Virus genome (UHGV): UHGV-2169520
DNA length: 32,664 bases
Source of the DNA: a virus
Reading direction: 5' to 3' (one strand)
Shown: piece by piece, positions 223 to 17,911 of the stretch
Numbering within the stretch: the first letter of the stretch is position 1
Layout of the letters: each line of letters begins with the position of its first letter
Position numbers and translations under genes: made by a program
Notes under the pieces: model-generated
Told to the model about the DNA's origin: nothing
Seen by the model: the letters and a program-made list of their open reading frames with translations, nothing else
Database searches by the model: none

Positions 223-324
223 ATGATGATGCCCTCACTGGTGAGGGTGACAAAAAAGCCCTCTCAATGGCGGGCAAATCTGGTTTTTTGTTTTGTCTCT
301 ACAGGGAAAGGGCGCCATATCGGC

Positions 325-724
325 CCACCCCAACAACCGGATAGCGGGGAATTTCTCCCCCGCTGCGGTTTCTTACGGTTTACACTGCAAGAACGCCGCA
401 AAACGCGCTCCCCAGATATCAAAGCTGAATTCACATAACGAATCGTGGACCATCCAGATGACCAGGGTTATTGTCAGGCATCAAATGCCAACAATAATCG
501 TTTTTTGCGGTATAGCGCTTGCTCCTTTTACAAAGAGGCGCTAACCTTCCACTTGTCACGGTAGGAAGGGTCAGGCCTCGGTTAAACACAGATGTTTTCC
601 GGGGCCTTTCCACATCCGGCCTTCAGGTTTTCCCTCCGGCCATCAGCCGAAAGGCACCCGTTTCTTTTTGTTGCGGCAATATTTCAGGTGTCAGTTGGGG
701 TGGGCTGTATCTTGTCTGATGCAT
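325..724. repeat. Copy 1 of a ~400-bp structured non-coding element (copy 2 at 2333-2745)
   Basis: Alignable with 2333-2745; 3' ~230 bp nearly identical, 5' part diverged; hairpin 343-364 kept by compensatory changes; substitutions in embedded ORFs show no third-position bias. Confidence 0.6.
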
Positions 725-821
725 AAAAAAATGCCCGCGCTTTGGCGGGCAAAAGACAAGACTTTTCGTTTGTATATCATGGATAATGGACACCCTTCCT
801 GTTGTCAGGTGGCAGGCACCC
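725..821 (-). ncRNA. Candidate small RNA unit B1 (body class alpha)
   Basis: Minus-strand -35 TTGAGA (851-856), 17-bp spacer, -10 TAGATT (828-833); terminator GCCCGCC..GGCGGGC plus U7 (725-750); predicted ~95 nt; no credible ORF. Confidence 0.35.
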
Positions 822-925
822 GTGGTTAATCTACTGTTTTTGTGCTTTTGTCTCAACCCTGAAGTTTTCATGGAAAATCAGGGTTGCTTCATATGTGCCA
901 GGAAGGTGCGGCTATGATAACTGCC

Positions 926-1018
926 AAAAAAAGCCCGCTTTCCGGCGGGCAAAACAGCAATGTGAGTTGTCTGTCATTGATACTGGACAGCCTTCCTGTT
1001 GTCAGGTGGAAGGTACCC
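926..1018 (-). ncRNA. Candidate small RNA unit B2 (body class beta)
   Basis: -35 TTGAGA (1048-1053), 17-bp spacer, -10 TAGATT (1025-1030); terminator hairpin 933-950 plus U-run (926-932 on plus strand); 5' hairpin CCUUCC..GGAAGG. Confidence 0.35.
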
Positions 1019-1122
1019 GTGGTTAATCTACTGTCTTTGTGCTTTTGTCTCAACCCTGAAGTTTTCATGGAAAATCAGGGTTGCTTCATGTGAACCAGGA
1101 AGGTGAGGCGATGGTAACCGCC

Positions 1123-1148
1123 AAAAAAATGCCCGCTTTCCGGCGGGC
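1123..1148 (-). terminator. Intrinsic terminator, minus strand
   Basis: Hairpin GCCCGCTTTCCGGCGGGC 1131-1148 preceded on plus strand by A7 (U-tract on minus strand). Confidence 0.6.
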
Positions 1149-1369
1149 AAAACAAGGAAGTACGGATCATGTATTATTGATTACGAGGCATTCCACCATG
1201 CCCACGTTTAATTTAGCTAGTTTTCATTTTATTCACAATATAGTTACTTATCATATTTATGAACAAAACTGTAATTTCATCTATAGGTATAAGTGATTTG
1301 CATTAACATGTTTCTTCTGTATTGCTGTTGGTTTTCCGATGCTGATATTTATGATACATTCAAGGGCAA

Positions 1370-1575
1370 ATGAGGTTGTTCCACAGAAACGATGTTGAGA
1401 TATTTCTGCTCCAGAAAGGACAAGCTAAAAAAATAAAGTGATATTATGATATGTCAGGGATGTTCAGGCATGTCAGTGTCTTATTAATAAACTCGTTGCT
1501 GCTGTAATAACACCAAAAAAATCAAAGCATAATCTGCATGTTGTTCCTGATGACCCAATAACCACAAAAGAATAA
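1370..1575 (+). pseudogene. Decayed copy of the 71-codon ORF family (intact copy at 3197-3412)
   Basis: ATG 1370 opens MRLFHRNDVEI then frame breaks (stop after 23 codons); C-terminal homologous segment ..RDVQACQCLI..HVVPDDPITTKE present out of frame; same flanking AT-rich region and terminator as the intact copy. Confidence 0.55.
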
Positions 1576-1668
1576 AAAAAATGCCCGCTTTCCGGCGGGC
1601 AAAACAGCAATGTGAGTTGTCTGTCATTGATACTGGACACCCTTCCTGTTGTCAGGTGGAAGGCACCC
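1574..1668 (-). ncRNA. Candidate small RNA unit B3 (body class beta)
   Basis: -35 TTGAGC (1698-1703), 17-bp spacer, -10 TAGATT (1675-1680); terminator hairpin 1583-1600 plus U-run. Confidence 0.35.
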
Positions 1669-1772
1669 GTGGTTAATCTACTGTCTTTGTGCTTTTGGCT
1701 CAACCCTGAAGTTTTCATGGAAAATCAGGGCTGCTTTGTGTGCGCCAGGGAAGGCGCCTCGATGGCAGGCGC

Positions 1773-1799
1773 AAAAAAAATGCCCGTGCTTCGGCGGGC
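1773..1799 (-). terminator. Intrinsic terminator, minus strand
   Basis: Hairpin 1782-1799 (one mismatch) preceded on plus strand by A8. Confidence 0.5.
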
Positions 1800-2026
1800 A
1801 AAATAAGGAAGTACAGGTTACATGTTATTGATAAAGTAGCATTGCTCTGTCCGTCTTTAATCTAACGAGTTTTGAGTTTTTTCACAATATTGTTACCTGT
1901 CATGTTATAGATGAAACTGCAATTTCATCTATAGGTATAAATGATTTGTATTAATGTGTGTCCACTGTTTGTCTGCTTTCTGGTTTTCAGTTGACTGTGT
2001 TTCTGATGAATTCAGGAGGTTGTCTT

Positions 2027-2125
2027 ATGAGGCTGTTCCACAGAAACGATATTGAGATTGAACTGCATTTCTCCTCCGGTGAGGATAAGGTTAAATCATT
2101 GTTGATGAAAAAAACAAAGATTTAA
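2027..2125 (+). pseudogene. Truncated copy (32 codons) of the 71-codon ORF family
   Basis: Strong SD AGGAGG 8 nt before ATG 2027; first 24 codons near-identical to 3197-3268 (2 of 3 differences synonymous) then divergence and early stop. Confidence 0.5.
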
Positions 2126-2194
2126 TTTATTGATATAAAGGATTTGTATCAGCGTATGTCCACGCAGTGACCACATTTTCGAGAGGTAGAGTAA

Positions 2195-2220
2195 GCCCGC
2201 AACATTGCGGGCTTTGTCTT
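2195..2220 (+). terminator. Intrinsic terminator, plus strand
   Basis: Hairpin GCCCGCAACATTGCGGGC 2195-2212 followed by TTTGTCTT. Confidence 0.6.
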
Positions 2221-2264
2221 ATAGTCTGATCACTGTTTCAAGTCGGTGAGGACACCAAAAAGAA

Positions 2265-2298
2265 AACCCGCAGTTTTTATGCTGCGGGTTTGTTTGTT
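2265..2298. terminator. Bidirectional hairpin terminator
   Basis: AACCCGCAG..CTGCGGGTT hairpin 2265-2290 with T-rich tract after it on the plus strand and U-rich tract after it on the minus strand. Confidence 0.5.
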
Positions 2299-2332
2299 CA
2301 TGTCTGTGAGATAGGGTGCCTTATCGACCTTA

Positions 2333-2745
2333 CCCTGGCAACCGATTGACGGGGGATTGCTCCCCCGTCGCGGTTTCCTTACTTCTTACATTGTAAGAAC
2401 GCCGCAAACTCCGCTCCCCAGAAGCTCATCCGTATTTCGCACAGCGAACCGTGCAATATCCAGATGATGAGGATTGCCGTCACGCAGAACGTGATGGCCG
2501 TAAGCGATTTTTGCGACATAGCACTTGCTCCTTTTCCGGAGAGGCGCTAACCTTTCACTTGTCAAGGTAATGCGGTTAGGGCCTCGGTTAAACAGAAATG
2601 TTTTCCGGGGCCTTTCCACATCCGGCCTTCAGGTTTTCCCTCCGGCCATCAGCCGAAAGGCACCCGCGCGTAATTTAACTGTTTCTTTTTGTTGCGGCAA
2701 TATTTCAGGTGTCAGTTGGGGTGGGCTGTATCTTGTCTGATGCAT
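2333..2745. repeat. Copy 2 of the ~400-bp structured non-coding element
   Basis: Alignable with 325-724; hairpin 2348-2369 GACGGGGGA-TTGC-TCCCCCGTC; 15-bp insertion relative to copy 1. Confidence 0.6.
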
Positions 2746-2841
2746 AAAAAAATGCCCGCGCTTCGGCGGGCAAAAAACAAGACTTTTCGTTTGTATATCA
2801 TGGATAATGGACACCCTTCCTGTTGTCAGGGGGAGGTACCC
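2746..2841 (-). ncRNA. Candidate small RNA unit B4 (body class alpha)
   Basis: -35 TTGAGC (2871-2876), 17-bp spacer, -10 TAGATT (2848-2853); terminator hairpin 2754-2771 plus U-run. Confidence 0.35.
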
Positions 2842-2945
2842 GTAGCTAATCTACTCACTTTGTGCCCGCAGCTCAACCCTGAAGTTTTCATGGAAAATCA
2901 GGGCTGCTTTGTGTGCGCCAGGGAAGGCGCCTCGATGGCAGGCGC

Positions 2946-2972
2946 AAAAAAAATGCCCGCTCTCCGGCGGGC
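2946..2972 (-). terminator. Intrinsic terminator, minus strand
   Basis: Hairpin GCCCGCTCTCCGGCGGGC 2955-2972 preceded on plus strand by A8. Confidence 0.6.
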
Positions 2973-3196
2973 AAAACAATGATCTACGTCACATTATATT
3001 GATAACCGGGCATTCCTCCATGCCCATTTTTAATTTAGCCATTTTTCATTTTGTTCACAATATAGTTATCTATCATATTCATGAATGAAATTATAATTTC
3101 ATCTATAGGTATAAATGATTTGTGTTAATATGTTTCTCCTGTCTAACTGTTTTCTCATTTTTCGATACTAGTATTTCTGATATATTCAGGGGGCGT

Positions 3197-3412
3197 ATGA
3201 GATTGTTCCGAAGAAACGATATTGAGATTGAACTGCATTTCTCCTCCGGTGAGGATAAGGTTAAATCAATAAAGGTGAAACTAAGACATGCCCGGGATGT
3301 TCAGGCGTGTCAGTGTCTTATTGATGAACTCGTTGCTGCCGGAGGAACGCCAAAAAAACAAAAATATAATCTGCACGTGGTTCCTGATGACCCCATAACC
3401 ACAAAAGAATAA
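3197..3412 (+). CDS. Small hydrophilic protein (71 aa), function unknown; only intact member of a three-copy family
   Basis: ATG 3197 with G-rich SD; MRLFRRNDIEIELHFSSGEDKVKSIKVKL..; convergent with ogr; AT-rich upstream region with conserved hairpin 3008-3036. Confidence 0.6.
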   Translation: MRLFRRNDIEIELHFSSGEDKVKSIKVKLRHARDVQACQCLIDELVAAGGTPKKQKYNLHVVPDDPITTKE

Positions 3413-3505
3413 AAAAATGCCCGCTTTCCGGCGGGCAAAAAACAATTTAGGTCATATTTCATCATGGATAATTAAATACTTGCCCGTGGTTGCGGGAAAG
3501 TATCT
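3411..3505 (-). ncRNA. Candidate small RNA unit B5 (body class gamma), immediately downstream of ogr
   Basis: -35 TTGAGA (3535-3540) starts 15 bp after ogr stop; 17-bp spacer; -10 TAGATT (3512-3517); terminator hairpin 3419-3436 plus U7; also the likely terminator for ogr. Confidence 0.35.
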
Positions 3506-3554
3506 GCCGTTAATCTACTTGCCTTATGATGTCCTCTCAACCTGATTATTGTTC

Positions 3555-3806
3555 TTAAATATCAAGATTAATCTGAGTATTCCCCCTGTGAGATCCCGGA
3601 AAATCTTCCCACGGTATCCGCTCTGTACCCTGCGGCGACGGGGCGCGTTTTGATGTGAATTTGTTAAAACCCTCCAGTGTGGTAAAGCCGATCCCGCATT
3701 CGAGGTTATTGCACTGGTAGTACTTCAGGCGAACTGTGCCTGAATCATTTTCATTGCGACTGGTGCGGATACGTGCGGATGCACCGCATAGGGGACAACG
3801 GAACAT
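3555..3806 (-). CDS. ogr: Ogr/Delta-family zinc-finger late-gene activator
   Basis: MFRCPLCGASARIRTSR...YYQCNNLECG: C-x2-C...C-x4-C zinc finger matching P2 Ogr; SD AGGAGA 4 nt before ATG. Confidence 0.9.
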   Translation of the reverse strand: MFRCPLCGASARIRTSRNENDSGTVRLKYYQCNNLECGIGFTTLEGFNKFTSKRAPSPQGTERIPWEDFPGSHRGNTQINLDI

Positions 3807-3849
3807 GGCTTCTCCTTATCTGGCTGAGTGGAGATGGCTCATTTTAATT

Positions 3850-4941
3850 TTATCCGCCTGAATCTGCTATCCATTCGGGGATTTTCGCTTCCAGCTCCAG
3901 TTGTGTGGTGAAGCCGCTTTCATCTATGATGTGCTCCACCCTGGCAATAATCCAGTCCTGATTGTCCACCTCGCTTTTAAAACCTGTTACCCTGCCGTGC
4001 ATTTCGGGGTACAGGTCGGCACGACCCCGTGCCAGAGTGATGGAGAATGCCGCTGCTCCCCGCTGTAACTCCTGCCACTTTGCCGCAGCTGCACGTCGTG
4101 CGGTTTCTTCATTCTGGTAAGTCCTGCGCAGAACGTAGACGTTCCCTTCCGCGCCTTCCATGTAATCACCCTCCCGGCTGCTGCTCTTCTCCTGTTTCTG
4201 TTTCCCGGCTTCCCTGCGTCGCTTCACGTTCACTTTTTTCTTTTGCCCGAACTTCAGATCGAGCCAGTGCGCCCGGACCCCCGTATACGCATCACGGTCA
4301 GCAATGCGAAAGCGGTGACTGTCGCCGCTGCTGCGGGTAATGGCGAACGAAGGCAGGGCTCTTCCGTCCGGCCCGGTTCCGCCACCCGGCAGAATGAATA
4401 ACAGGCTGCCGTTTTTTACGGTGGCAATCGCACCCAGCATTTCAGCCATGCGGGTCAGGAAGGATATATCGCTCTCTTCGGTCTGGTCAGCGTGGTCAAT
4501 TTCGATATCCATGAGGATTTCGCTTATCTGTGTCTTCAGGCCGTAGCGGTGAGCGATGGCTGACACAACCTGTTTTACGGTCACGTCGTGCCAGGATACC
4601 TCCCGCCTCACGTTGAACTCTTCCCGAAAATCTGCGCTGCTGGCGGTGATGATCAGTTTATCTGGAGGTCCTTCCCACGCAACCTCATCAACGACGTAGG
4701 TGCCCTTGTTAACCAGTGATTCTCCTCGCCAGCCAATCATCACTCTCAGGCGTGCGCCACGTGGTGGCAACTGTAACTGCCCGTCCGTATCGTCAAGGGT
4801 GAGGGTGACGCGGTCTGCCTCAAAGGCCCGGTTATCCGTCAGGGTCAGCGTCATGAGTCGCTCTGTGAGGTTTGCCAGTGTGTTGTTGTTGATGGTGATG
4901 TCGATATCCGGTGACGGAACGGTAACTGACAGCTCTTTCAT
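3850..4941 (-). CDS. D: Tail protein D
   Basis: P2 gpD-like over full length; start set at ATG 4941 (SD AGGAGAG) rather than the ORF-track start 4977, which lacks an SD. Confidence 0.85.
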   Translation of the reverse strand: MKELSVTVPSPDIDITINNNTLANLTERLMTLTLTDNRAFEADRVTLTLDDTDGQLQLPPRGARLRVMIGWRGESLVNKGTYVVDEVAWEGPPDKLIITASSADFREEFNVRREVSWHDVTVKQVVSAIAHRYGLKTQISEILMDIEIDHADQTEESDISFLTRMAEMLGAIATVKNGSLLFILPGGGTGPDGRALPSFAITRSSGDSHRFRIADRDAYTGVRAHWLDLKFGQKKKVNVKRRREAGKQKQEKSSSREGDYMEGAEGNVYVLRRTYQNEETARRAAAAKWQELQRGAAAFSITLARGRADLYPEMHGRVTGFKSEVDNQDWIIARVEHIIDESGFTTQLELEAKIPEWIADSGG

Positions 4942-5005
4942 GGTGTTCTCTCCTGGTGCGTTCTGTAATGGTTTCATGCACCGTAGCGGCGTTGAATGGC
5001 TGTTT

Positions 5006-5029
5006 TGTTGTCGCTGTCAGGAGACAACA
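5006..5029. promoter_or_regulatory. Candidate Ogr-type activator site in the divergent D/FI intergenic region
   Basis: TGTTGTC-N10-GACAACA, containing TGT-N12-ACA (5009-5026), centred ~55 bp from plausible start sites on either side. Confidence 0.45.
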
Positions 5030-5102
5030 TCAAAGGGGTGAGATTACCGCGTGTGTGGGTAATGATTACGCAAAATCAACCAGCCAGACAAGGGTGAAAC
5101 AT

Positions 5103-6386
5103 ATGAGTGAAACACGCTTTCATGGTGCGCGCGTAAGGGAAAGTACCGGCCTTGCCACCGCCATTAATGATGTGGATTCCAGTGTTATTGGTATTGTGGC
5201 TACGGCAGATGACGCGGATGAAACTCTGTTCCCGCTGAACAAACCCACACTGCTGACCCGCGTCAGTGATGTGCTGGGTAAGGCCGGCACAAAGGGGACG
5301 CTTTACAAATCGCTTAAGGCTGTCGCCGACCAGGTGAGCACGAAGGTGATTGTGGTGCGCGTTCCTGATGCCAGTTCTCAGGGCGCCCCGGATACAGGAG
5401 TTACATCATTCGGTCATCTGGATCCTGAAGACAGGGCATTTTTTGGTATTGATGAGTCTGAAGATGCACATCCTGTATACCCACACAAAACGCAGGACCA
5501 GTATGTCATTGGTGGCACGGATGGCGACGGTAATTATACCGGTATGTATGCACTTCTGATAGCTGAACAGGATGATGCCATCGGTTACCGTCCGCGCATC
5601 ATCGCAGCTCCCGGACTGGATACTGAAGCTGTCACAAAATCCCTGTGTGTAATTGCAGAAAAACTTCGCGCATTTGTCTACGCGGGCTGTCACAACTGCA
5701 AGAAGCCCGCTGATGCAATCAGCTACCGCGCCAGATTTAACGAGCGCGAACTTATGCTGCTCTGGCCTGACTTCATCGCCTATAACCCGAAATCCGGCGC
5801 TAATGAGGTCTTCCCGGCTGCGGCGTACGCCTGCGGTTTACGTGCACGTATTGACCACGAACAGGGCTGGCATAAATCGCTGTCCAACGTGCCGGTAAGA
5901 AATGTGCTGGGTATTTCCAGCCCGGTGTTCTGGTCCCTTCAGTCCGAAGACAGCGATGCCAACAATCTCAACAACAAGGAAATCACTACCATCATTTGCC
6001 GTAACGGTTTCCGCTTCTGGGGCAACCGTACGCCGGAAACGAAGGCGTATATCTTTGAGGTGTACACGCGAACCGCTCAGGTGCTGGCTGATTCCATTGC
6101 GGAAGCGCAGTTTGAAACGATTGATGCCCCGCTGACCCCTGCTAATGTGAAAGACGTGTTAAGCGCAATTCGCGCAAAACTGGATGCGCTGGTTACGTCA
6201 GGACGTCTCATTGGTGCGGAGTGCTGGTATGACGTGGTGGATAACAGCACCACGGAACTTCGTCAGGGACGCGTGCGTATCCGCTACAAGTACACGCCCG
6301 TTCCGCCGCTTGAGGATATGGAACTTTACCAGACGTTTACTGATGAATTCTTTGGTCCTGCATTTGCGACGCTTGGAGGTGCTTAA
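5103..6386 (+). CDS. FI: Tail sheath protein FI
   Basis: MSETRFHGARV.. P2 gpFI-like; ATG 5103 preferred over upstream in-frame start. Confidence 0.9.
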   Translation: MSETRFHGARVRESTGLATAINDVDSSVIGIVATADDADETLFPLNKPTLLTRVSDVLGKAGTKGTLYKSLKAVADQVSTKVIVVRVPDASSQGAPDTGVTSFGHLDPEDRAFFGIDESEDAHPVYPHKTQDQYVIGGTDGDGNYTGMYALLIAEQDDAIGYRPRIIAAPGLDTEAVTKSLCVIAEKLRAFVYAGCHNCKKPADAISYRARFNERELMLLWPDFIAYNPKSGANEVFPAAAYACGLRARIDHEQGWHKSLSNVPVRNVLGISSPVFWSLQSEDSDANNLNNKEITTIICRNGFRFWGNRTPETKAYIFEVYTRTAQVLADSIAEAQFETIDAPLTPANVKDVLSAIRAKLDALVTSGRLIGAECWYDVVDNSTTELRQGRVRIRYKYTPVPPLEDMELYQTFTDEFFGPAFATLGGA

Positions 6387-6904
6387 TGGCCGTACCAAAA
6401 AATCTCAGGGTGTTCACGCTGTTTACTGACGGGGTGAACCAGATTGGCAGGGTGACCGGCTTCACGCCCCCCAAACTGACCCGTAAAACGGAAGCCTATC
6501 GCGGTGGTGGTATGGCCGGCGCGGTGAATATCGACCTTGGTCTGGATGACGGCGCGCTGGATGCGAGTTTCACCATGGGCGGGCCGACCCGCGAACTGTT
6601 CCTTAAGTACGGCGGCACGATCGACGGTACGCTGCTGCGCTTTGTCGGTGAGTACTACAACGATGAAGAGCAGAGCGACCTGTATGAAATTGAGCTTCGC
6701 GGCCGCGTGACGGAAATTGATACGGGGGAGGCAAAACAGGGTGAGGTCACGTCTCACACCTATGCGGTCAGGAGTACCTACTACAAACTCAGCATTAACG
6801 ACCGTCCGGTGCTGGAGATTGATTTACTGAACCACATCGAACGCAAGGACGGCAAAAACGTCTTCCCGGACCGCGTGCGCTCGGCGATTGGTCTTGGTGG
6901 TTAA
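6386..6904 (+). CDS. FII: Tail tube protein FII
   Basis: MAVPKNLRVFTLFTDGVNQIG.. P2 gpFII-like; start overlaps FI stop (TAATG). Confidence 0.9.
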   Translation: MAVPKNLRVFTLFTDGVNQIGRVTGFTPPKLTRKTEAYRGGGMAGAVNIDLGLDDGALDASFTMGGPTRELFLKYGGTIDGTLLRFVGEYYNDEEQSDLYEIELRGRVTEIDTGEAKQGEVTSHTYAVRSTYYKLSINDRPVLEIDLLNHIERKDGKNVFPDRVRSAIGLGG

Positions 6905-6954
6905 TGTTTCCCACGGCGGCGCGCGGCGTCGCCCCCTGATTTGAGGTTTTATGC

Positions 6955-7317
6955 ATGAAAGAAAATCCGGTTGTTGCCCCTGTTACTGACGGTGCTGATG
7001 CGGCGGACGTGACCAGTGAGCGCGGCGTGACGCTGAAAACGCCCCTTGTGCTCGGTAACAAAAAAATCACGTATGTGGAAATCACGCCTGCTGTACAGCA
7101 GGCCGGTTCACTGCGCGGGCTGTCACTGCTTGACGTGCTGAACATGAAAACGGACGCGATGTTTGAGTTACTCCCGCGCGTCACTTCGCCGCGACTGGAC
7201 GAGGTTCTGCTTAAGCGCATGGGGTCCGCTGATTTTATTCAGCTGTGCGGGGTGGCGGTTAATTTTTTGGCCGGTCAGGACTCTGGCGGGAAGAGCGGGG
7301 CGGCGACGGCAGGCTGA
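6955..7317 (+). CDS. E: Tail assembly chaperone E
   Basis: Position between tube and tape measure; ends 50 nt after the T6G slippery site. Confidence 0.8.
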   Translation: MKENPVVAPVTDGADAADVTSERGVTLKTPLVLGNKKITYVEITPAVQQAGSLRGLSLLDVLNMKTDAMFELLPRVTSPRLDEVLLKRMGSADFIQLCGVAVNFLAGQDSGGKSGAATAG

Positions 7318-7481
7318 TAACCGTCGTGCCCTTTGAGCACATTGAAGACTTTGTGGCGGATATCGCCGTTATTTTCAACTGGTCTCCCGCTGAAATCTTC
7401 CTGATGGATCCCGGCGAGGTGGTCGCCTGGCGTGAGCGGGCGGCCCTTCGCAGCGGGAACGCAGAGCATGAAAACGCTTGA
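6955..7481 (+). CDS. E+E-prime fusion made by -1 frameshift at TTTTTTG (7263-7269)
   Basis: The -1 frame after the slippery heptamer stays open to TGA 7479-7481, overlapping the start of T, as in P2. Confidence 0.6.
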
Positions 7482-10400
7482 TATACGGGTCGCCTTCAGC
7501 GCTGTTGACAGGCTGACCCGTCCCACCGAAAACGCCCGTCGCATGATGGGCCAGCTTGGCGACTCCATACAGAGAACGCAGGGTGCGATCAAAAACCTGG
7601 AACGCCACGCCCGTTCATTTGATCGCGCCCGCGAGGCTGCAAACAAGGCCGGAAACGGCATTGTCAGGGCGCAACGCCAGTTAAGCGCACTTCAGCAAAT
7701 TCAGCGCGCCGGAACCGTGCTGTCTGACAAACAGAAAAAGCTGATGAATGATTTGAGCCTCAAACTTGAGCGTCTCAATGAGGTCCGTGCGCGTGAAGTT
7801 CAGCGAATGCGCGAACTGGGTGGTGAGCTGCGGCGCCACGGTATTGCGCTTTCCGGCAGTGACAACACCATTCAACAGGCCATACGGCGAACACAGCAAT
7901 ACAACGACCAGCTGGAACGCGAACGGCAGGCGCTGGCACGTGTCACGCAGGCACGCCAGCAATATTCCCGTGCTCAGGAGACGGCGGGAAAACTTAAAAC
8001 GGTCGGACTTACGGCGGTTGGTACGGCGGCGGCAGGCGGCTATGCGGCCGGACGTTTCCTGCAACCGGCGGTCAGTTTTGGTAAGGAGATGTCGCGCGTC
8101 CAGGCGCTGACCCGTATTGACAAAAACAGTCCGCAGTTTAAGGCGCTGCGCGAACAGGCCATTAAGCTGGGCTCTGAAACGCAGTTTACCGCCGGTGATG
8201 CTGCCAGCGGTCAGGCGTTCCTTGCCATGGCCGGCTTCACACCACAGGCCATACAGGCGGCGCTACCCGGCGTGCTTGATCTGGCAATGGCTGCAGGGAT
8301 GGACCTGGGACAGACTGCCGATATCAGTTCGAATATCCTCACACAGTTTGGTCTGTCCGCTGACCAGATGGATCGCGTGGGTGACACGCTGGCCGCCACC
8401 TTCACACGAACCAATACGGATCTCCGTTCGCTGGGTGAAACCATGAAGTACACGGGGCCGGTTGCAGCTTCACTTGGCCTGTCCCTTGAACAGGCGGCAG
8501 CCATGACGGGTGTCCTTGGCAGTGTGGGGATCCGTGGAAGTGATGCAGGTACGGCGCTGCGTGCCAGTCTGTCACGTCTGGTTGATCCGCCGAAGGCCGC
8601 TGCAATGGCACTGAAAGAGCTTGGCGTGGAGACGCAGGATGCTTACGGGAACATGCGCCGGATGGAAAATATCCTGAATGAGCTGTACCAGGCCACCCGA
8701 AAATACGGTAATGCCGCGCAGGTCTCCTTTTTCAGGGCTATTGCCGGGCAGGAGTCCTATGTTTCCCTGATGAATCTTGTCACTGCGGCGGGGGAAAATA
8801 ATCTTCCCCGTCTTACGCAGGAGATTGAACTGGCCACCGGGGAACTTAATCAGACTGCCCGTGTTATGGCTGATAACCTGGACGGTGACCTGAAATCACT
8901 GAACAGCGCATGGGAAGGACTGCGTATCCGTGTCGCTGACCTCGTTGACGGGCCGCTGCGTTCTGTCACGCAGTCGTTCACCCGGGTTATTGCGAAAGTC
9001 ACCGCGCTGGCTCAGGCGCACCCTGAACTGACAAAACAACTGCTGATTGCCGGTGGTGTACTGCTGGCTGCGGTTGCGGCCATGGGGGCGCTGTCACTTG
9101 CCACTGGTGTGTTGATGGGGCCGCTGGCAAAACTGCGTCTTGGGTTTGCCCTGCTGACCGGCACATCCGGCCTCGGTCGTGCGCTGCCGTTACTGACGCA
9201 GCTGCGCGGCGTACTCGGTGGTCCGCTGGGCGGTATCGGTGGCTGGCGCGTGCTGTTTGTCGGTATCACCTCCGGTGCCGGACGGTTTGCTGCACTGCTG
9301 GGCGTAGTTGCGGGGCGGCTTCGTGGTGTGCAGGCGGGACTTGGCGCGCTGCGTGGTGGTCTGCTGGCTGCGTTCACTTCACCTGGCGGCGCACTGATTT
9401 CACTGGGGCGCGGTATCGGAATACTGGCGCTCAGACTGTCAGGTCTGCCCGCACTGTGGGGGATGGTGAGTGGTGCGGTGGGCGCACTTGGCGGGGCGCT
9501 GGGTTTTCTGTTAAGTCCGGTGGGCCTTGTGGTGGCGACACTGGTCGGTGCGGCAGTGCTTATCTGGCGGCACTGGGACCATTGTTTGAGTATGTCGGGC
9601 AGACAATCGGGCGTGTGTGGCAGTGGTTCGTGGATTTGTTCGCGCCGGTAAGCACAACAAAGGATGAGCTGGACAAGTGCACGGAAGCCGGGCGGACGTT
9701 CGGGCAGAAGGTCGGGGAGTTTATCAGCAATCTGGTGACCGGTCCGGTTACGCTGCTGATTGACTCATTAACCCGGGTGCTGGAAAAACTCGGGCTGATT
9801 CCGTCAGCGGTTGAGCGCGCCCGGAAAAAAGCGGAAGAACTAAAACAGAAGGAGTTGCTGAACGAGAAAGCTGCCATGCTTCTGGCGGATGTTAACGTCA
9901 TTAATCCGCCGAAAAAGGACGAGGATAAAAAAGACGGCGAAAAACCCAAAGGGGGGCAACCACCCCTGACGGGGGAGAATACCGGCACTATGCGCCGCCT
10001 GAACAAAATCGTCGATAACACCGGTGGTCTGCTGGATGAGGCGAAACAGGCGAAAAAACGCGCTGGTCCCGGCGATATTATCTTTAAAAACCTGCCGGAA
10101 GCGCTGGCCGTTCGTGGTGAGTGGAAGGAGGAACGCTTTAACCGCGCAGCTTCCCTGTTACCGGGTAGTGTCAGTGAGCCACCTGTCAGACTGCCGCAGG
10201 TGCCGTCGGTCAGTGTGCCTTCGTTGCCACCGCTGCCAGCGCCACCGCCTGTCAGTGTTTCGCCGCTGATATCCACCACGGCGAACGTGTCGCCGGTCGT
10301 GAAGCCGGTGGTGTCCGTGAATAATGTGCCGGTTATTCCTCCGGTCGTCCGTCCGGTACTGTCCGGTAATATTACGCCAGTGGTTCCGCCGGTGATCAAA

Positions 10401-10694
10401 CCGGTTATGACTCACGATGTCATGCCGACGTTCTCCCCGCTAATGACACCAGTGATGGCGGCAACATCCCGTCCGGTGGTTGAGGCTGTGCGCCAGCCCA
10501 TATCCCCCGCATCGCCCCGACCGCGCCAGAGTGAGGCGGCACCATGGGGATTAACTGGCGAACTGCATATTCACCTGCATGATGTTCACACGCAAAACCC
10601 GCGCGAACTGGCAAAAATGGTGGGTGATGCCGTCCGTGCGGAAATGGAACGCCGTATCCGCCAGACAGTCGGTAGTTTCCGTGACAGAGATTAG
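7468..10694 (+). CDS. T: Tail tape measure protein; reading frame broken near 9566-9572 (possible pseudogene or sequencing indel)
   Basis: P2 gpT-like coiled N-terminal half and Gly/Ala/Leu-rich segment; two overlapping ORFs (7432-9651 frame 1, 9456-10694 frame 3); protein sense switches at ..AAVLIW / ALGPLFEYVGQ. Confidence 0.85.
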
Positions 10695-10705
10695 GAGTAC
10701 CTCGC

Positions 10706-11194
10706 ATGATGATGATTTACGGCATGTTTGTTTTTGAGTTGCGTACGCTGCCTCATCAACAACTGCAACATAATAAAACCTGGCGCCACGTTAAAAATGA
10801 ACGCATCAATCGTTCGGCCAGCTGGCAGTATATCGGGGCGGGTGACGACCAGATCACGTTGTCCGGTGTGCTTTATCCCGAAATTACCGGCGGTGAGGTT
10901 TCCCTCAGCCTTTTAACGACGCAGGCTTACACTGGTCGCCCATGGCCGCTGATTGACGGTGTGGGGCAGATATACGGCATGTATGTGATAACGGCTGTCC
11001 GCACAACGCGAAGCGAACTTGACCGCCACGGTAAGGCCAAAAAAATTGAGTTCACTGTCAGTCTGGAACGCTGTGATGAGGATTTGCGGGAGAGTATGGC
11101 CTCGTCGCCGGTGTCTGATATGCTTTCGGGAATGAAAGGGAAGTTAAGTTCGGTCTGGAATACCACAGTAAGCGGCGTAAATGATCTGATGTGA
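10706..11194 (+). CDS. U: Tail protein U
   Basis: MMMIYGMFVFELRTLPHQQLQ.. matches P2 gpU; SD AGGAG upstream. Confidence 0.9.
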   Translation: MMMIYGMFVFELRTLPHQQLQHNKTWRHVKNERINRSASWQYIGAGDDQITLSGVLYPEITGGEVSLSLLTTQAYTGRPWPLIDGVGQIYGMYVITAVRTTRSELDRHGKAKKIEFTVSLERCDEDLRESMASSPVSDMLSGMKGKLSSVWNTTVSGVNDLM

Positions 11195-11264
11195 AGGTAA
11201 TGTGCCGCATTCTTGCGGCACCTGCATGATGAATTATTTATGAATGCCCGTTCCTTTTCCCCGC

Positions 11265-11876
11265 TCATTCCATTTCTGGTGGTGTTTCCGGCCAGCTTAT
11301 TTCAGGCTCCGTGCTGATATCCAGTGCGTTCAGCTCGTCGATATAATCCAGCACGGCATTCAGTTTTGCCGTTTCTTCTGGTGTCAGACTGCGACCTGCC
11401 CGCAACTTAAGGTTGATGAGGTCGATGGACTTCATCGCCTGATCCACCCGTTCCTTGCGTTGCTGTCTGGCAACCTCCAGCTCTTCGGCTTGCTGCCGTT
11501 CTGTATCGGTTACCCACGCCTCACCGTTCCAGGTATCCCATGGTGTGGCAGGCTGTTTTGTCGTTGTCCCTTCCGGGTAGTCACCTGGTTGGGTAATCTG
11601 GACCGGATTACCGTTCTCTGTGCTGTATACCGTCTCTCCACGATGATCGGGGACATACTCCCACCCGTCCAGCGTGGACGTCCGGCAAATCACGTAACCC
11701 GGCATTGCCTCTGGCGGGGCATCGGCGCATGAATGTGCCGGGGTACCCACCCCCAGGGCGAGATACTCCACAGAGGATGAGGTGTATTCCCGGGTTTCCT
11801 CATCATAGTGATATACAGTGATATCGCCTGCGAAAGTGGCGATACCGTTTTCATCCAGAACTGCAGTGTTACTCAT
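11265..11876 (-). CDS. G: Tail fibre assembly protein
   Basis: P2 gpG-like; start overlaps H stop (TAATG). Confidence 0.85.
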   Translation of the reverse strand: MSNTAVLDENGIATFAGDITVYHYDEETREYTSSSVEYLALGVGTPAHSCADAPPEAMPGYVICRTSTLDGWEYVPDHRGETVYSTENGNPVQITQPGDYPEGTTTKQPATPWDTWNGEAWVTDTERQQAEELEVARQQRKERVDQAMKSIDLINLKLRAGRSLTPEETAKLNAVLDYIDELNALDISTEPEISWPETPPEME

Positions 11877-14119
11877 TAAACTGCCCTCACAATATAATTA
11901 AAAGCGATATTGCGCGGTCTGATCGCTATCCATCTGTCTTTTTCATTACTCACCAGCTTACCGGCTCTGGCTATTGCCCATCTGTCAACTGGTTTTGTGC
12001 CGTACAGGATGCCGTTACCGGTTCTGGGTTGATCAGGGGTTATGTTTATGATGTCGTTATCATGTGATGCAAATGAAATCCCTGCCTGAATATCTGCACC
12101 TCCCGCTACGCCGTGGTACGCCTGTATGGCGGTACAAATATATGTTGCTTCCTGTGTGGATAACAATAAGCGTCCCCTGTCAATCATTCGCAGGNNNNNN
12201 NNNNCATCCCATCCACGAATAAATTCCCCGCGCAAATCTGGTAGCCTGAGGTCAGGGTAGGCCACCGCCAGTTTTGGGTATTTTGTACGCGTGAATGCGG
12301 CACCGTTGCACTGTAACCACCCCTCAGGTGGTCTTGACGAAGGCCACGGAACGGGTACGCCAACTGGCAGCGTCGAGCCTTCTCCTAAACCAAAGTAATC
12401 AAGAATATCTTTTATGCTTTGTTTACCCATGATGACGCGGGCAACAGACGAAAAAACAGGGGCGTCTGTGATCTGAGCCCAGCGATGAGTGTGGGCTGCC
12501 GAGGCTTTGCTGTTGGCAAGGTCATACGCAGCTTTAACAGCTTTTGGTGTGGCCGCCAGCGTTTCGGAATTGCTGTTTGTGGCGCTGCTTAGCTGTACGA
12601 TGCCTTTGCGTCCGGTGGTTGCATCCTGTCCTGTATACTTGCTCGTCAGCATATCGTGTAAGGCTTTAACCGCTTTGGGGGTGGCGGCCTCAGTCTCTGA
12701 CTCACTGTTTGTGGCACTGCTCAGCTGTACGGTGCCTTTTGCCGTCAGCGAGGCTGATGGCACNNNNNNNNNNNNNNNNNNNNNNNNNNNNNNNNNNNNN
12801 NNNNNNNNNNNNNNNNNNNNNNNNNNNNNNNNNNNNNNNNNNNNNNNTGTGGCCGCCAGCGTTTCGGAATTGCTGTTTGTATCGCTGCTCAGCTGTACGA
12901 TGCCTTTGCGTCCAGTTGTTGCATCTGTGTTTGTCACCTCCACCCACTCTGACCATGGGCCGTTACCGTTAAAGTTTCCGGTAACTGTCCTGATAAATTT
13001 TCGTGGCGGATCCCAGCTCGTGTATTCATGCTGGCAGAATCCCCATGCACCAACACGGATGCGTAACTCTCCTGCCTTCTCTACAGGATAGTTTCTGTCT
13101 GTTCTCGCACCTGAGTCACTCTGCTGGTAATAATCTCCCGCGTCTTCCTTACGCCCCAGAGTGTTCAGGTCTGTTTCCCCCAGGGATGTTGTTGGCTTCA
13201 CGAACGCCATGCTCAGTGCATCACTTACTGCCTTCGGTGTGGCCGCCAGTGTTTCGGAATTGCTGTTTGTGGCGCTGCTCAGCTGTACGATGCCTTTGCG
13301 TCCGGTGGTTGCATCCTGTCCTGTATACTTGCTCGTCACCATATCGTGTAAGGCTTTAACCGCTTTGGGGGTGGCCGCCTCAGTCTCTGACTCACTGTTT
13401 GTGGCACTGCTCAGCTGTACGGTGCCTTTTGCCGTCAGCGAGGCTGATGGCACACCAGTTATCTGATTCCACGGGTGGGTGTGGCTGGCGGGTGCTTTAC
13501 CGGCTGCAAGGTCATATGCAGCCTTGACGGCCTTCGGTGTGGCGGCCAGTGTTTCAGAGGTGCTGTTTGTGGCGCTGCTCAGTTGGGTGAATCCTTTTTC
13601 TGTCAGTGTCGCGTCAGGGTGGTTACGGGAACGTGCGTGTTCCGCTATTTTCTCATCAATGTAGTCCGTGGTCGGCAGAATTGTTGTTGTGTCCATGACC
13701 AGTTCCACCACGGCGTCGGAGGTGACGGTGATTACTGCACGGAATATCTGCGCCCGCCCTGAACCTTCCTCTCTGGTGGGCTTGTAACTTTCAGCGGTAT
13801 TTCCTACTGCAATCATTGTACCTGTATCATCAAACACACCAATTTCACGCACCCAGAATCCGCCGGTTTCAGGAGGAATGACCAGTTCGGCGATGAGGCG
13901 GTTCGGGTTCTCCGGGTCGGTGAAGACGCGGTTGACAGACTGGCGCCAAACCTCATTGTAAAGCGATGTCTGGTTTTTCTGCGGCTGACGAAGCTCTCCA
14001 TTGCCGTCCCCTACAGCCATGTGCGTAAGGCGTACAGGTCTACCGCCAGGCGCCGTTGTTGCGGCCAGCTTTGCCAGCCCGATGTCGGTGATAAGGGTTC
14101 TGAATTTTCTCGTGCTCAT
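11876..14119 (-). CDS. H: Tail fibre protein; interrupted by two N gaps, internal repeats
   Basis: N-terminus MSTRKFRTLITDIGLAKLAA.. matches P2 gpH; repeated ..ATTGRKGIVQLSSATNSNSETLAATPKAVK.. blocks; C-terminal PDLRGEFIRGWD motif; N runs 12195-12204 and 12764-12847. Confidence 0.85.
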   Translation of the reverse strand: MSTRKFRTLITDIGLAKLAATTAPGGRPVRLTHMAVGDGNGELRQPQKNQTSLYNEVWRQSVNRVFTDPENPNRLIAELVIPPETGGFWVREIGVFDDTGTMIAVGNTAESYKPTREEGSGRAQIFRAVITVTSDAVVELVMDTTTILPTTDYIDEKIAEHARSRNHPDATLTEKGFTQLSSATNSTSETLAATPKAVKAAYDLAAGKAPASHTHPWNQITGVPSASLTAKGTVQLSSATNSESETEAATPKAVKALHDMVTSKYTGQDATTGRKGIVQLSSATNSNSETLAATPKAVSDALSMAFVKPTTSLGETDLNTLGRKEDAGDYYQQSDSGARTDRNYPVEKAGELRIRVGAWGFCQHEYTSWDPPRKFIRTVTGNFNGNGPWSEWVEVTNTDATTGRKGIVQLSSDTNSNSETLAATXXXXXXXXXXXXXXXXXXXXXXXXXXXXVPSASLTAKGTVQLSSATNSESETEAATPKAVKALHDMLTSKYTGQDATTGRKGIVQLSSATNSNSETLAATPKAVKAAYDLANSKASAAHTHRWAQITDAPVFSSVARVIMGKQSIKDILDYFGLGEGSTLPVGVPVPWPSSRPPEGWLQCNGAAFTRTKYPKLAVAYPDLRLPDLRGEFIRGWDXXXXLRMIDRGRLLLSTQEATYICTAIQAYHGVAGGADIQAGISFASHDNDIINITPDQPRTGNGILYGTKPVDRWAIARAGKLVSNEKDRWIAIRPRNIAFNYIVRAV
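12195..12204. other. Assembly gap (10 N) inside tail fibre gene H
   Basis: Run of N. Confidence 0.95.
12764..12847. other. Assembly gap (84 N) inside tail fibre gene H, within the repeated block
   Basis: Run of N flanked by near-identical repeat copies. Confidence 0.95.
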
Positions 14120-14122
14120 GGT

Positions 14123-14686
14123 TCAGTCTTCCGGGTAAATGGTGATGATGTCGCCGTCGTAACCTGCGGCAGCGGCGTAAATGGCACCGTGTATTTCCTG
14201 GATGATACTAAGCCCCACGAGGTGGCGGCTGACGGGGCGCGCATCGGCAATCAGACGCTCCATTTCTTCATGCAGCTCTTCACTTACTCCGGTTTCAAGT
14301 GTGCCAATCTCAATGGTGAAGGTCCCGGGCGAGCCGTCAAACTCCCACCATTCTGATACACGGATGAGGTAGCCCAGTGGTTCAACGATGCGGCGGAGTG
14401 CACTGATGGTCCCTTTGTGGCGATGTATCATCCATGCGTCCCGAATCACCTGTCGCCTGGTCTCTTCCGGCCAGTTGCGGTCCCAGCTGTCAACGGAACA
14501 TGCCCATGCAAGGTAGGGCAGGAGGTGAGCAGGGCAGCGGTCCGGCGACCACAGGGTGTCGGCGTCCACCGGTATGGTACTGATGCGTACTCCTGTCGCC
14601 TCTGTGGCGCGCATGAATGGCCCTGCGGACGGTGGAAGCAGTGATGTACTGTGCTGTGCGCTGTCTGTTTTTTTCCTGTCACTCAT
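14123..14686 (-). CDS. I: Baseplate protein I
   Basis: P2 gpI-like; start set at ATG 14686 (SD GGAGG, overlaps J stop). Confidence 0.8.
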   Translation of the reverse strand: MSDRKKTDSAQHSTSLLPPSAGPFMRATEATGVRISTIPVDADTLWSPDRCPAHLLPYLAWACSVDSWDRNWPEETRRQVIRDAWMIHRHKGTISALRRIVEPLGYLIRVSEWWEFDGSPGTFTIEIGTLETGVSEELHEEMERLIADARPVSRHLVGLSIIQEIHGAIYAAAAGYDGDIITIYPED

Positions 14687-15575
14687 TGCGTCCTCCTTCG
14701 CTGATGCTGAATGTGGTACATCTGGCTGCCTGAGTGTCACTGATGGTGATGTTCTGCGTGGGTTTTATGACCTCAACGCGCTGGACACCGTGAACATGCA
14801 GCGCTGCAGTGATGGCTGACAGGGCCACGTCCTGACCGATACGGCCCTGGTCTGCCAGCCATGCACGGAAAGCGGCGTCAGCGGCCGCAAGCATGGGTTC
14901 AGACTCCGGCCCTGGATAAAAATACAGCTTCGCTTCCATTACCCAGTTCACGATGGTAGCACTCTGCACAGTCAGGCGGTCGGCAACCGGGCGCACGTTC
15001 TCGGCATTCAGGGCGGTGCGCACCGTGTTCAGTAACGCCTCACCGGCGGTGCCGTCACCGTCTGCTGACAGGATGGAGACGGTGACTGTGGCCGGTGACG
15101 GGCTGATGGCGCGCGCATCACGGACAAGACCGCTTGCGCTCCGGGCAAAATACTCATACGCGCCGGACGGTCCGGCCACACTCAGGCCGTCCCAGGCTGA
15201 CTGGGCACGCAGACGCAGCGATGTGTCGCTTTCCATCACTGCTTCCGTGGTATCAGTGGCCGGATGAATGACCAGGCGGCGGGTGTTGTTGTTGGCGGCC
15301 AGATTGTCCAGGTCACTGCCCCGGCTGTGGCTGAGCATGCAGGCGCGGGCGGCTTCATTGATGCGCTGGCGAAGCAGCATTTCACGAAAGGCCATGGCCT
15401 GGGAAATGATGTTCAATGGCTCGGATTCCAGAGTAAGGGCACGGGTGACGGCGGCGCGGTATTCTTCCGGGAAGGAGCTCACCATCATGGTTTTAATGTC
15501 TGCCAGGATGGACTCAAAATCCGGCTGCGCGATGATGGCCGGTTCCGGTAACTGTGACAGGTCAACGGAAGGCAT
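14679..15575 (-). CDS. J: Baseplate protein J
   Basis: P2 gpJ-like over full length; SD GAGGGAG. Confidence 0.9.
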   Translation of the reverse strand: MPSVDLSQLPEPAIIAQPDFESILADIKTMMVSSFPEEYRAAVTRALTLESEPLNIISQAMAFREMLLRQRINEAARACMLSHSRGSDLDNLAANNNTRRLVIHPATDTTEAVMESDTSLRLRAQSAWDGLSVAGPSGAYEYFARSASGLVRDARAISPSPATVTVSILSADGDGTAGEALLNTVRTALNAENVRPVADRLTVQSATIVNWVMEAKLYFYPGPESEPMLAAADAAFRAWLADQGRIGQDVALSAITAALHVHGVQRVEVIKPTQNITISDTQAARCTTFSISEGGRNE

Positions 15576-15578
15576 GAT

Positions 15579-15929
15579 TTACTCCCTCAGGGTGATACTG
15601 AATGTGATGTTCTGCATGGTTTCGGTGATGATGCCGGATAACGTCACCACGGCGCGTCCGCCAGCCCGCCAGTTCACATCGACGTTCTGCAGTGCTATAC
15701 GGGGTTCATGGCGCGCCAGCGCAGTCACCGTGGCGCTCATGCACTGTAAACGCGTGGTGTCGTTCATGGGCTCGTCGATGAGGTCCGGTAACAGGCTGCC
15801 GTATTCGCGGCGCATCACCCGGCTGCCTGGCGGTGTGGTCAGGATATCCCGCACGCTGTTTTTCAGGTGTTCGCTGTCGCTCAGCGTGCCGGTTCCCTGC
15901 GGGTTCATCCCCCTGTAAACAGCGGTCAT
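15579..15929 (-). CDS. W: Baseplate wedge protein W
   Basis: P2 gpW-like; start set at ATG 15929 (ATGA overlap with V stop; SD GGGAGG). Confidence 0.85.
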   Translation of the reverse strand: MTAVYRGMNPQGTGTLSDSEHLKNSVRDILTTPPGSRVMRREYGSLLPDLIDEPMNDTTRLQCMSATVTALARHEPRIALQNVDVNWRAGGRAVVTLSGIITETMQNITFSITLRE

Positions 15930-16507
15930 TGCGGGCCTCCCGTGGTGCCCGGGCCCGTCCTGACGCCACCGTGGGTGTGCGTATGAACGGTGATACCGTT
16001 GGATGTCAGGCTGCCGCCGCTGTGGGATATGCTGCCGCGCATCTCGCCGCCGTTCTGCACCTCCAGGGTGGCGGTGATAAGTTTGCGGGTACACACCACC
16101 TCCGACGTGTCCAGGGTGATGCGCGTGTCGGCCTGAATGCTGGCTGTTTTAATCCCCTTAACCTCCAGTGCACCGGCGTCTGCATCGTAGCGGAATACCG
16201 CACCGTCCGGTGCTGTCATGATGATTTCCTTCAGTGTGCTGCCCGGTGCCGGGATATCATCGCTCCAGAGGCTGCCGATGATTATCGCGGTTTCGGGATT
16301 ACCACCGATACAGACGAACGCCACCTGTTCACCGGTGGCTGGCGGCACCCAGACACTGAACGCGCCCGCCCGCGCGGTGCTCCAGCGAAGCCAGCCTGTC
16401 TCCAGTCCGCCACTGCGCACCCGGACCTCCCAGGTCTGCGGGTTCACGTCGAAAATCACGCCGGTTCTGATGATGTTGCTGATAAGGCGCATTAATTCCG
16501 CGTTCAT
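15926..16507 (-). CDS. V: Baseplate spike protein V
   Basis: P2 gpV-like; ATGA overlap with upstream S. Confidence 0.9.
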   Translation of the reverse strand: MNAELMRLISNIIRTGVIFDVNPQTWEVRVRSGGLETGWLRWSTARAGAFSVWVPPATGEQVAFVCIGGNPETAIIIGSLWSDDIPAPGSTLKEIIMTAPDGAVFRYDADAGALEVKGIKTASIQADTRITLDTSEVVCTRKLITATLEVQNGGEMRGSISHSGGSLTSNGITVHTHTHGGVRTGPGTTGGPQ

Positions 16508-17109
16508 GCCACAGCCCTCGCGATATTGTCCATAATGATACGCTGAATAAGTCGTTCATCTGCCGGTGTTATTCCAAGAAGTTCACGGGCCGGATAATCC
16601 GTATACATCCCTGCGGCCACCCGGTCGCGCTCCCCGAACTGGTGAACGCGGGCAATGCGTGCCGCCACGCCGCTGTAGCCCACCGTCACGCCTGATGCGT
16701 CCGCCTTCACTTTCAGATAACGGGCCGTGCGCAGCTTCGCAAACATCGGCACCGTTTTTGTGGTGTCACGGTTGATGCGGCGTGTCCTGATTTCAAGGAA
16801 ACGGAGGATATCACTCCGGTAAAAGGTACGTATGCCGCTCCGGTCTTCATCCCAGCCGGTGATGGTCTGGCCGTATTTTCCTGAACCGTGATGCCAGTTT
16901 TTCAGGGTGCGGTTCTGGTTTTGCCAGATAAAGCTGATGCGCTCCTGAAGGCGTGATATACGGCGTTTACGGCGTGTCCACACCGAACCGTCCGGCGCTT
17001 TCTGGGCGCGCATCCGGCTCTGGTTCACGCGCCGCAGCTCCTTACCCACATGCGCGGCAATGCGCTTCACTGCCTGCGGGCTGGTTGCCAGCCGGATATT
17101 GACAAACAT
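16504..17109 (-). CDS. S: Tail completion / virion morphogenesis protein S
   Basis: Position between R and V; start chosen at ATG 17109 with SD AAGGA; exact start uncertain. Confidence 0.7.
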   Translation of the reverse strand: MFVNIRLATSPQAVKRIAAHVGKELRRVNQSRMRAQKAPDGSVWTRRKRRISRLQERISFIWQNQNRTLKNWHHGSGKYGQTITGWDEDRSGIRTFYRSDILRFLEIRTRRINRDTTKTVPMFAKLRTARYLKVKADASGVTVGYSGVAARIARVHQFGERDRVAAGMYTDYPARELLGITPADERLIQRIIMDNIARAVA

Positions 17110-17175
17110 GTTACTCATTCCTTCAGCGGGAACGAGGTTACGGTATCTCAGTTTCCCCATAACATTCTCCGCGTG

Positions 17176-17640
17176 TTATCCGGTGACAATGTTCCACGTC
17201 ACATCCTCCAGAATGTGTGACCAGTCGCCGTCCTGCGGGATGCGTGATTTCGGCTCCGGTAGATGTTCTGTCATGAGGGTGCCGTCATCCCTGCGGGTGA
17301 CGCGCACGCGTTCACGTAACGGCAGCTCAAACAGCACGTCCGCGCTGTCGTCGTCGTTAATGGCCGCCGTGAACTGAATATCGTTGTTGCGCTCAGGATT
17401 AAGCAGCAACTGCGGCTGGTTCTCTGCCAGCCAGACAATCAGTGGAAGCGTCAGGTTGTCCAGATCGCCCGTGTAGTCCATCACGAACATCACCAGCCGG
17501 TAGTTGTACACGAACGTCGGCGTCTCGCCGGTGGTCTCTATCCCGCCACGTTCAATGAACACGGTGAACTTTTCCGGGTTGGCCCTGCACCACCGGCACG
17601 CTGTACTCATGTGTGTGCTCAGGGATTTACTTTTCAGCAT
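17176..17640 (-). CDS. R: Tail completion protein R
   Basis: MLKSKSLSTH.. resembles P2 gpR MLKPDSL..; start at ATG 17640. Confidence 0.8.
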   Translation of the reverse strand: MLKSKSLSTHMSTACRWCRANPEKFTVFIERGGIETTGETPTFVYNYRLVMFVMDYTGDLDNLTLPLIVWLAENQPQLLLNPERNNDIQFTAAINDDDSADVLFELPLRERVRVTRRDDGTLMTEHLPEPKSRIPQDGDWSHILEDVTWNIVTG

Positions 17641-17911
17641 GCGCCTCTCCGTTCTGTCGGTTGAGTCTCCGGCGCTCCATCGCCTCAATGGCCCGTTTGT
17701 CTGCGTTGCAGGTTTCCAGTGCATCCAGGAGGCTGTCGCTCCATATCCCGATATTTCCCCAGGTGGGGTGTTCAGGGAAGGGCGGGGGCCGTGTTCCCGT
17801 CGTCAGTCCCGCCGGAATGAACCGGAAGGAGGGCGCGGGCAGTGGCGCGTTTCGTGTGTTCGCGCAGCCGGTCAGTAAAACGGTGGTCAGGAAGAGTGCC
17901 GGCGCACTCAT
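17627..17911 (-). CDS. lysC: Outer-membrane spanin (Rz1/LysC-like lipoprotein)
   Basis: Lipobox LTGC after hydrophobic leader; Pro-rich; starts inside lysB in another frame and extends past it. Confidence 0.75.
   Translation of the reverse strand: MSAPALFLTTVLLTGCANTRNAPLPAPSFRFIPAGLTTGTRPPPFPEHPTWGNIGIWSDSLLDALETCNADKRAIEAMERRRLNRQNGEAHAEK

Follow-up and report, generated by a model that had tools for sequence, protein, structure and literature searches.

Results

The prophage and its tail operon

The window – the whole stretch of 32,664 nucleotides that was analysed, UHGV virus genome UHGV-2169520 – carries a P2-like E. coli prophage (Peduoviridae, related to Xuanwuvirus) that adjoins serS. 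Its structural genes make up a Xuanwuvirus-like set, as judged from the map of open reading frames, from Pfam hits on identical contigs, from the map of phage P88 and from the annotation of E. coli DG341-1; the assignment to the genus itself is approximate. The genes of the tail operon (Table 1) follow the order sheath – tube – E/E′ – T – U, which places T, the tape measure gene, where a contractile-tail operon has it. The E′ frame ends at 7479-7481, overlapping the start of the tape measure gene, and an in-phase T TTT TTG, the canonical P2-type -1 slippery site, gives a fusion resembling gpE+E′; at the matching place in the DG341-1 genome RefSeq lists a 'GpE family phage tail protein'.

The identity of the gene is given by PF10145 (PhageMin_Tail, TP901-type), which matches residues 240-439 of the open reading frame, counted from GTG 7432, over the full profile (1-201) with E = 3.1e-53 and 181 bits against a cut-off of 33.2. 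This match, together with the position between the gpE/E′ chaperone genes and gpU, bears out the initial annotation, which had named the gene as a tape measure gene. Judged by its sequence, the copy in the window is a disrupted member (a pseudogene) of the PF10145 / P2 gpT-like family.

A comparison of 3555-11194 with 11265-17724 shows the block from sheath to U on the plus strand and the genes on both sides of it on the minus strand: D/ogr on the left, and on the right those for the fibre, the baseplate and R-S. Relative to the classical P2 gene order the block is inverted, and the same layout is found in P88 (Xuanwuvirus).

Several further features of the window deserve record. Between serS and ogr (306-3446) a unit of ~650 bp is present in several copies that have diverged to 80-87% identity, together with a small Hok/Gef-family ORF; a tandem repeat of 197 bp is reported by TRF at 770-1154, and one public contig (L003, see below) carries a different copy number of the repeat left of the prophage. 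Two RNAs score above the Rfam gathering threshold side by side on the minus strand of the early region: C4 antisense RNA (31431-31518, 79 bits) and the Hfq-binding RNA isrK (31554-31629, 62 bits). The initial annotation noted that the assembly has N gaps, and there are three (12195-12204, 12764-12847 and 20310-20320), situated in the tail fibre gene and the small terminase gene. The fibre gene is internally repetitive, 12848-12928 and 13227-13582 being 93-95% identical to stretches elsewhere in it. Since DG341-1 has 20 bp in place of the 11 N at 20310-20320, the lengths of the gaps must be taken as estimates.

Table 1. Features of the tail operon and of the interrupted tape measure gene, in window coordinates (L numbers denote loci from complete E. 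coli genomes).
Feature	Position	Strand	Detail
Tail sheath (FI) and tail tube (FII) genes	4956-6904	+	PF04984, PF17482, PF04985; upstream, same operon
Tail chaperone genes, gpE / gpE+E′ type	6955-7481	+	gene 6955-7317; -1 site T TTT TTG at 7263-7269
Tape measure gene, 5′ fragment	7468-9651	+	product of 727 aa, of which 704 are authentic and the last 23, from 9580, are out of frame
Pseudogene as annotated by RefSeq in intact loci	7468 to ~9581		L001 1469-3664; L002 1469-3664; L017 458-2269 and 2435-2653; L018 458-2653
Heptamer G GGT TTT	9501-9507	+	phase X XXY YYZ for a -1 slip from frame A into frame B
Deletion junction	9571-9581	+	sole kept copy of the 11-bp direct repeat CACTGGGACCA
Tape measure gene, 3′ fragment	9573-10694	+	-1 frame, LGPLFEYVGQ... 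to stop 10692-10694; 373 codons; open upstream to 9456
gpU-like tail protein gene	10706-11194	+	PF06995, E = 2.8e-41; directly downstream of the tape measure gene

The tape measure gene is broken between two frames

The 5′ part of the gene is read in frame A, an open reading frame spanning 7432-9651 on the plus strand for which ATG 7468 is the likely start and GTG 7432 an alternative. Its authentic protein ends ...LVVATLVGAAVLIWRHWD; 23 aberrant residues, HCLSMSGRQSGVCGSGSWICSRR, follow before the TAA at 9649-9651. Frame B, which is -1 relative to frame A, is open from 9456; it encodes nonsense to begin with, then LGPLFEYVGQTIGRVWQWFVDLFAPV..., and gene callers put the start of this 3′ fragment at GTG 9615. 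The one continuous frame that would run through the C-terminal, hub-binding end of the protein is absent from the window, the break being at 9571-9581. In other E. coli genomes the two halves are found at 100% identity as parts of one intact tape measure gene, and the switch of frame is therefore not a matter of chance.

That the gene is split by a frame change had been claimed before, and the two frames, with halves that match one intact gene, confirm it. The nature of the lesion proved to be different: it had been taken for a single-nucleotide change and is in fact a deletion of 85 bp with a net shift of -1. The junction had been placed at 9566-9572; the frame does switch in this region, but the true junction, the repeat copy at 9571-9581, lies a few bases to the right. 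The residues WRHWD, previously read as the start of the nonsense, belong to the authentic protein.

An 85-bp deletion flanked by short direct repeats

Direct comparison with the intact locus of E. coli DG341-1 (NZ_CM144243.1; L001) defines the lesion. Positions 6000-9581 of the window equal 1-3582 of this locus and positions 9565-12000 equal 3651-6086, a difference of 85 bp. Loss of a single G from the GGG run at 9575-9577 was considered as an alternative and set aside in view of the 85-bp difference seen in the E. coli genomes.

The intact locus holds two copies of CACTGGGACCA, at 3572-3582 and 3657-3667, whose starts are 85 bp apart. These are the exact 11-bp core of a longer pair – TGGCGGCACTGGGACCA at 3566-3582 and TGGCACCACTGGGACCA at 3651-3667 – that extends over 17 nt with 2 mismatches at the same spacing of 85. 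Throughout the gene there are only two direct repeats of at least 11 nt with starts no more than 300 nt apart, and the CACTGGGACCA pair is one of them. The DNA that was lost amounts to one repeat copy plus the 74 bp between the copies; since 85 bp is 28 codons and one nucleotide, the downstream part of the gene falls into the -1 frame. The intact gene reads the two copies in different frames (HWDQ and PLGP), which marks them as chance nucleotide microhomology and not as a repeat of the protein.

The footprint is that of a deletion between short direct repeats, by replication slippage or by a microhomology-mediated route, a mechanism that we infer from the repeat footprint itself. The parental allele carries CACTGGGACCA twice, and the derived allele has kept exactly one copy. 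No unusual hairpin that might bring the repeat copies together was found in the intervening DNA (DNA fold z = -0.27).

The long form is ancestral

The region was found in 30 complete E. coli genomes at 94-100% identity, and each matches the window in two pieces that together span 85 bp more. All 30 have 215 bp where the window has 130 bp; the deletion is in none of them. Single intact open reading frames are of 1115 codons in L001 and L017 and of 1192 codons in L018, while the intact product measures 1103 aa in DG341-1 and ~1180 aa in strain 24A16CRGN010; the 1103-aa product is held by NCBI under many accessions and bears the name 'phage tail tape measure protein'. Of the two alleles the long one prevails, both in the complete E. 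coli genomes and among IMG/VR and JGI metagenome contigs. A comparison with orthologous tape measure genes, proposed in the initial annotation as a check, thus finds relatives with the extra 85 bp and, where checked, with one open reading frame.

Nucleotide searches of phage records, near and distant, with 9200-9950 as query gave no match, and relatives among phages were found by protein-level search only. The closest cultured phages are members of Xuanwuvirus (Peduoviridae), among them P88, 503458 and P884B11, with tape measure proteins ~67% identical; those of Klebsiella Reipivirus phages are ~51% identical. The tape measure genes of P88 and of the Klebsiella phage are single-frame, and in a protein alignment the lost residues QLKAVVGGFLSGLWQGLTPLREAVAP align without gaps to PIRAFFAGVFSGIMERLTPLRETFERF of P88 and PIKAFFSGFFTGVIQGLAPVYNAFSRL of Klebsiella phage Kp4845-1. 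Conservation of the 28 lost codons in both phages makes the long form ancestral and the deletion derived.

The length of the protein varies elsewhere. A Pro/Val-rich stretch in the C-terminal part (window ~10150-10560) differs in length among relatives, whose proteins are of 1103, ~1180 and 935 aa.

The annotation of the intact gene in public genomes is itself anomalous. RefSeq/PGAP labels the intact 1115- or 1192-codon open reading frames of complete E. coli genomes as pseudogenes ('incomplete; missing C-terminus'). The annotated pseudogene (Table 1) stops precisely where the 85-bp segment does, at codon 732; the 3′ third of these uninterrupted open reading frames carries no annotation. The annotation of the intact gene may have been guided by the truncated allele.

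The deletion allele in public data

The exact 727-aa product is encoded on eight public contigs held by NCBI, ENA and Logan. Carriers include the E. coli assembly GCA_034686825.1 in NCBI, the ENA metagenomes ERZ918297 (run ERR912185), ERZ28664786 and ERZ27256597, and the Logan accessions DRR387408 and ERR912185; the NCBI protein records are HEP0787789.1 and HEP0803433.1. The six contigs that were fetched all carry the exact 80-nt junction and contain no N, and four of the six are identical to the window. Two deletion contigs (L003 and L007) share a SNP, C>A at 10253, that is absent from all ten intact loci; its restriction to deletion contigs fits a single origin followed by descent. The pattern indicates, as far as the available sequences go, one deletion event and then descent and spread of the carrier lineage.

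Scans of IMG/VR and JGI metagenomes, made with one degenerate pattern that matches both alleles, returned five contigs, every one intact and single-frame; among the GTDB representative genomes the junction pattern of neither allele was matched. Going by these surveys, the deletion allele is rare in comparison with the intact allele and belongs to a minority E. coli lineage.

The consistency of these contigs bears directly on whether the lesion is real. Under the artefact reading the true gene is intact, and one base, or the 85 bp, dropped out when a gapped draft was assembled. In its favour, the window is a scaffold interrupted by three runs of N, and the deletion appears in none of the 30 complete E. 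coli genomes and in none of the five IMG/VR or JGI metagenome contigs. Against this, the identical junction and product recur on contigs that are free of N, were built with different assemblers and stem from no fewer than three independent datasets, which also disposes of the sequencing or assembly indel that the initial annotation had offered as one of two options. Contig names such as k127 and k119 (MEGAHIT-style) imply k-mers far above the length of the 11-bp repeat, so assembly collapse at this place is not credible; the deletion allele exists as two sub-haplotypes; and the N gaps are more than 2.5 kb from the junction. We consider an artefact to be largely refuted, and give it next to no weight. 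Within a single sample both alleles may nevertheless coexist.

The lesion is recent

Compared along 32.6 kb with the intact DG341-1 prophage (L011), the window shows no differences other than the deletion of 85 bp, a single SNP at 21366 and the N gaps. The SNP is nonsynonymous and falls in the major capsid gene, where the window encodes Asp114 and DG341-1 encodes Gly. A single SNP over this length, measured against an intact prophage, argues that the lesion is recent. In the annotated DG341-1 relative, which lies next to serS, the P2-type gene set is complete from integrase to ogr. In the window the tape measure lesion is the only visible defect: the head, lysis, replication and other tail genes look intact.

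Discussion

The evidence that the frame break is the product of a genuine 85-bp deletion between 11-bp repeats, one that splits the tape measure gene, comes from the comparison with intact alleles, from the repeat copies that flank the lost DNA and from the recurrence of the junction in independent datasets. We regard this, with a tail-defective prophage as the probable outcome, as the best explanation and put its probability at roughly 0.88. Of the options given in the initial annotation an inactivating mutation is the one that the evidence favours, and that suggestion was right in substance.

A central issue is the consequence for the phage. The truncated product is without the last 399 of 1103 residues – 28 deleted and ~371 out of frame – and thus without its C-terminal third. 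In contractile-tailed phages the tape measure protein forms part of the central baseplate hub, and the tube polymerises around it to its end (PMC10457771); through the helices at its C-terminus the protein attaches to the central spike and hub (PMC10966104). A tape measure protein deprived of its C-terminal end would be expected neither to seed the tail nor to measure it. The prophage would still excise, replicate, package and lyse, and would release tailless, non-infectious heads. Relatives of the P88 type are inducible, functional and infectious (PMC5285337), and the intact form is therefore expected to be active. The prophage of the window is probably tail-defective, producing no normal tails or infectious particles.

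It is conceivable that the break is bridged during translation. Only a few copies of the tape measure protein are needed per tail, and low-level -1 slippage within the overlap at 9456-9648, for example at G GGT TTT, could yield a near-full-length protein with 28 residues deleted and ~24 replaced, and so keep the prophage weakly viable. Such rescue has certain points in its favour: over the 195 nt before the frame A stop, frame B is open as well, and the heptamer has the phase that a -1 slip requires; mammalian ribosomes shift at G_GGU_UUU, and cases of compensatory frameshifting across indels are known (PMC5009743); and the allele has persisted for long enough to acquire one SNP and is present in several samples. 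If true, tails built in this way would lose about one tube ring in length and the prophage would be naturally attenuated yet transmissible; a structural gene of a bacteriophage would then offer an example of compensatory frameshifting across an indel. But the same heptamer is present in intact alleles; it has therefore not been selected for rescue and its occurrence is probably coincidental. It is also not the heptamer that was most shift-prone of those tested in E. coli, which is A_AAA_AAG (PMC5009743), and the fold predicted downstream, in 9508-9600, is not significant (z = -1.02; 32 of 200 shuffled sequences fold at least as well). All relatives encode the protein in one frame, a conserved hydrophobic segment would be lost with the ~24 replaced residues, and persistence is explained equally by vertical inheritance of a dead prophage. 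We think rescue of this kind very unlikely. A programmed -1 frameshift is not supported: the two-frame layout occurs in no relative, the junction (9566-9581) holds no slippery heptamer – G GGT TTT, 64 nt further upstream, is alone in having the right phase – and deletion of DNA explains the arrangement fully.

A different way to retain function would be a tape measure in two pieces, in which the 3′ fragment re-initiates at GTG 9615, coupled to the stop at 9649, and both chains assemble the tail. Gene callers do predict a 359-aa open reading frame from 9615 that overlaps the upstream one by 37 nt, and the later SNP at 10253 is synonymous in frame B (GTC>GTA); one site is too little to tell whether selection still acts on the 3′ part. 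Yet no Shine-Dalgarno-like motif precedes any in-frame start in 9456-9700, and we know of no precedent for a tape measure protein that works as two chains. From the account of contractile tails cited above (PMC10457771) a ruler would need an unbroken polypeptide that reaches from the hub up to the tail terminator. We find a two-chain tape measure scarcely plausible.

Viewed as an 85-bp deletion, the event is an ordinary early pseudogenisation of a prophage structural gene, of a kind already known, and matters little beyond correct annotation. What it provides is a clean, datable first step of prophage decay: one microhomology deletion, a single SNP away from a working copy. For annotation, the split should be recorded as one disrupted tape measure gene and not as two genes; in surveys, a prophage such as this should not be counted as inducible or functional without a test.

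Several known systems invite comparison. With respect to the gene itself, the intact allele is 67% identical to the tape measure protein of P88 over its length, and the segment that the window lacks is no exception. It shares its domain and gene position with the genes of P2-like phages, and the orientation of the module with P88. At 1103-1180 aa it is longer than the P88 protein (935 aa), mainly because it has additional stretches rich in Gly/Ala/Leu and in Pro/Val.

Deletion between short direct repeats, by replication slippage or by RecA-independent microhomology-mediated events, was classically described for deletions in lacI. The allele studied here has the same hallmarks: an 11-bp exact repeat flanks the lost segment in the parental allele, its copies are 85 bp apart and exactly one is kept. 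It departs from the lacI type in that hairpin-prone intervening sequence was not detected between the copies, and the mechanism is read from the footprint.

There is a resemblance, too, to the frameshifted chaperone genes E/E+E′ of P2 and G/GT of lambda, with which the window shares a -1 frame change in a tail operon; the true chaperone site is 2.3 kb upstream (PMC5009743). Unlike the chaperone frameshift, the frame change in the tape measure gene is absent from relatives.

A further parallel is with defective or cryptic prophages that arise from point inactivation: one structural gene is hit, and a prophage that is otherwise complete is inherited with the host chromosome. It differs from typical cryptic prophages in that decay is at a very early stage, with a single lesion and one SNP over 32.6 kb separating it from an intact copy.
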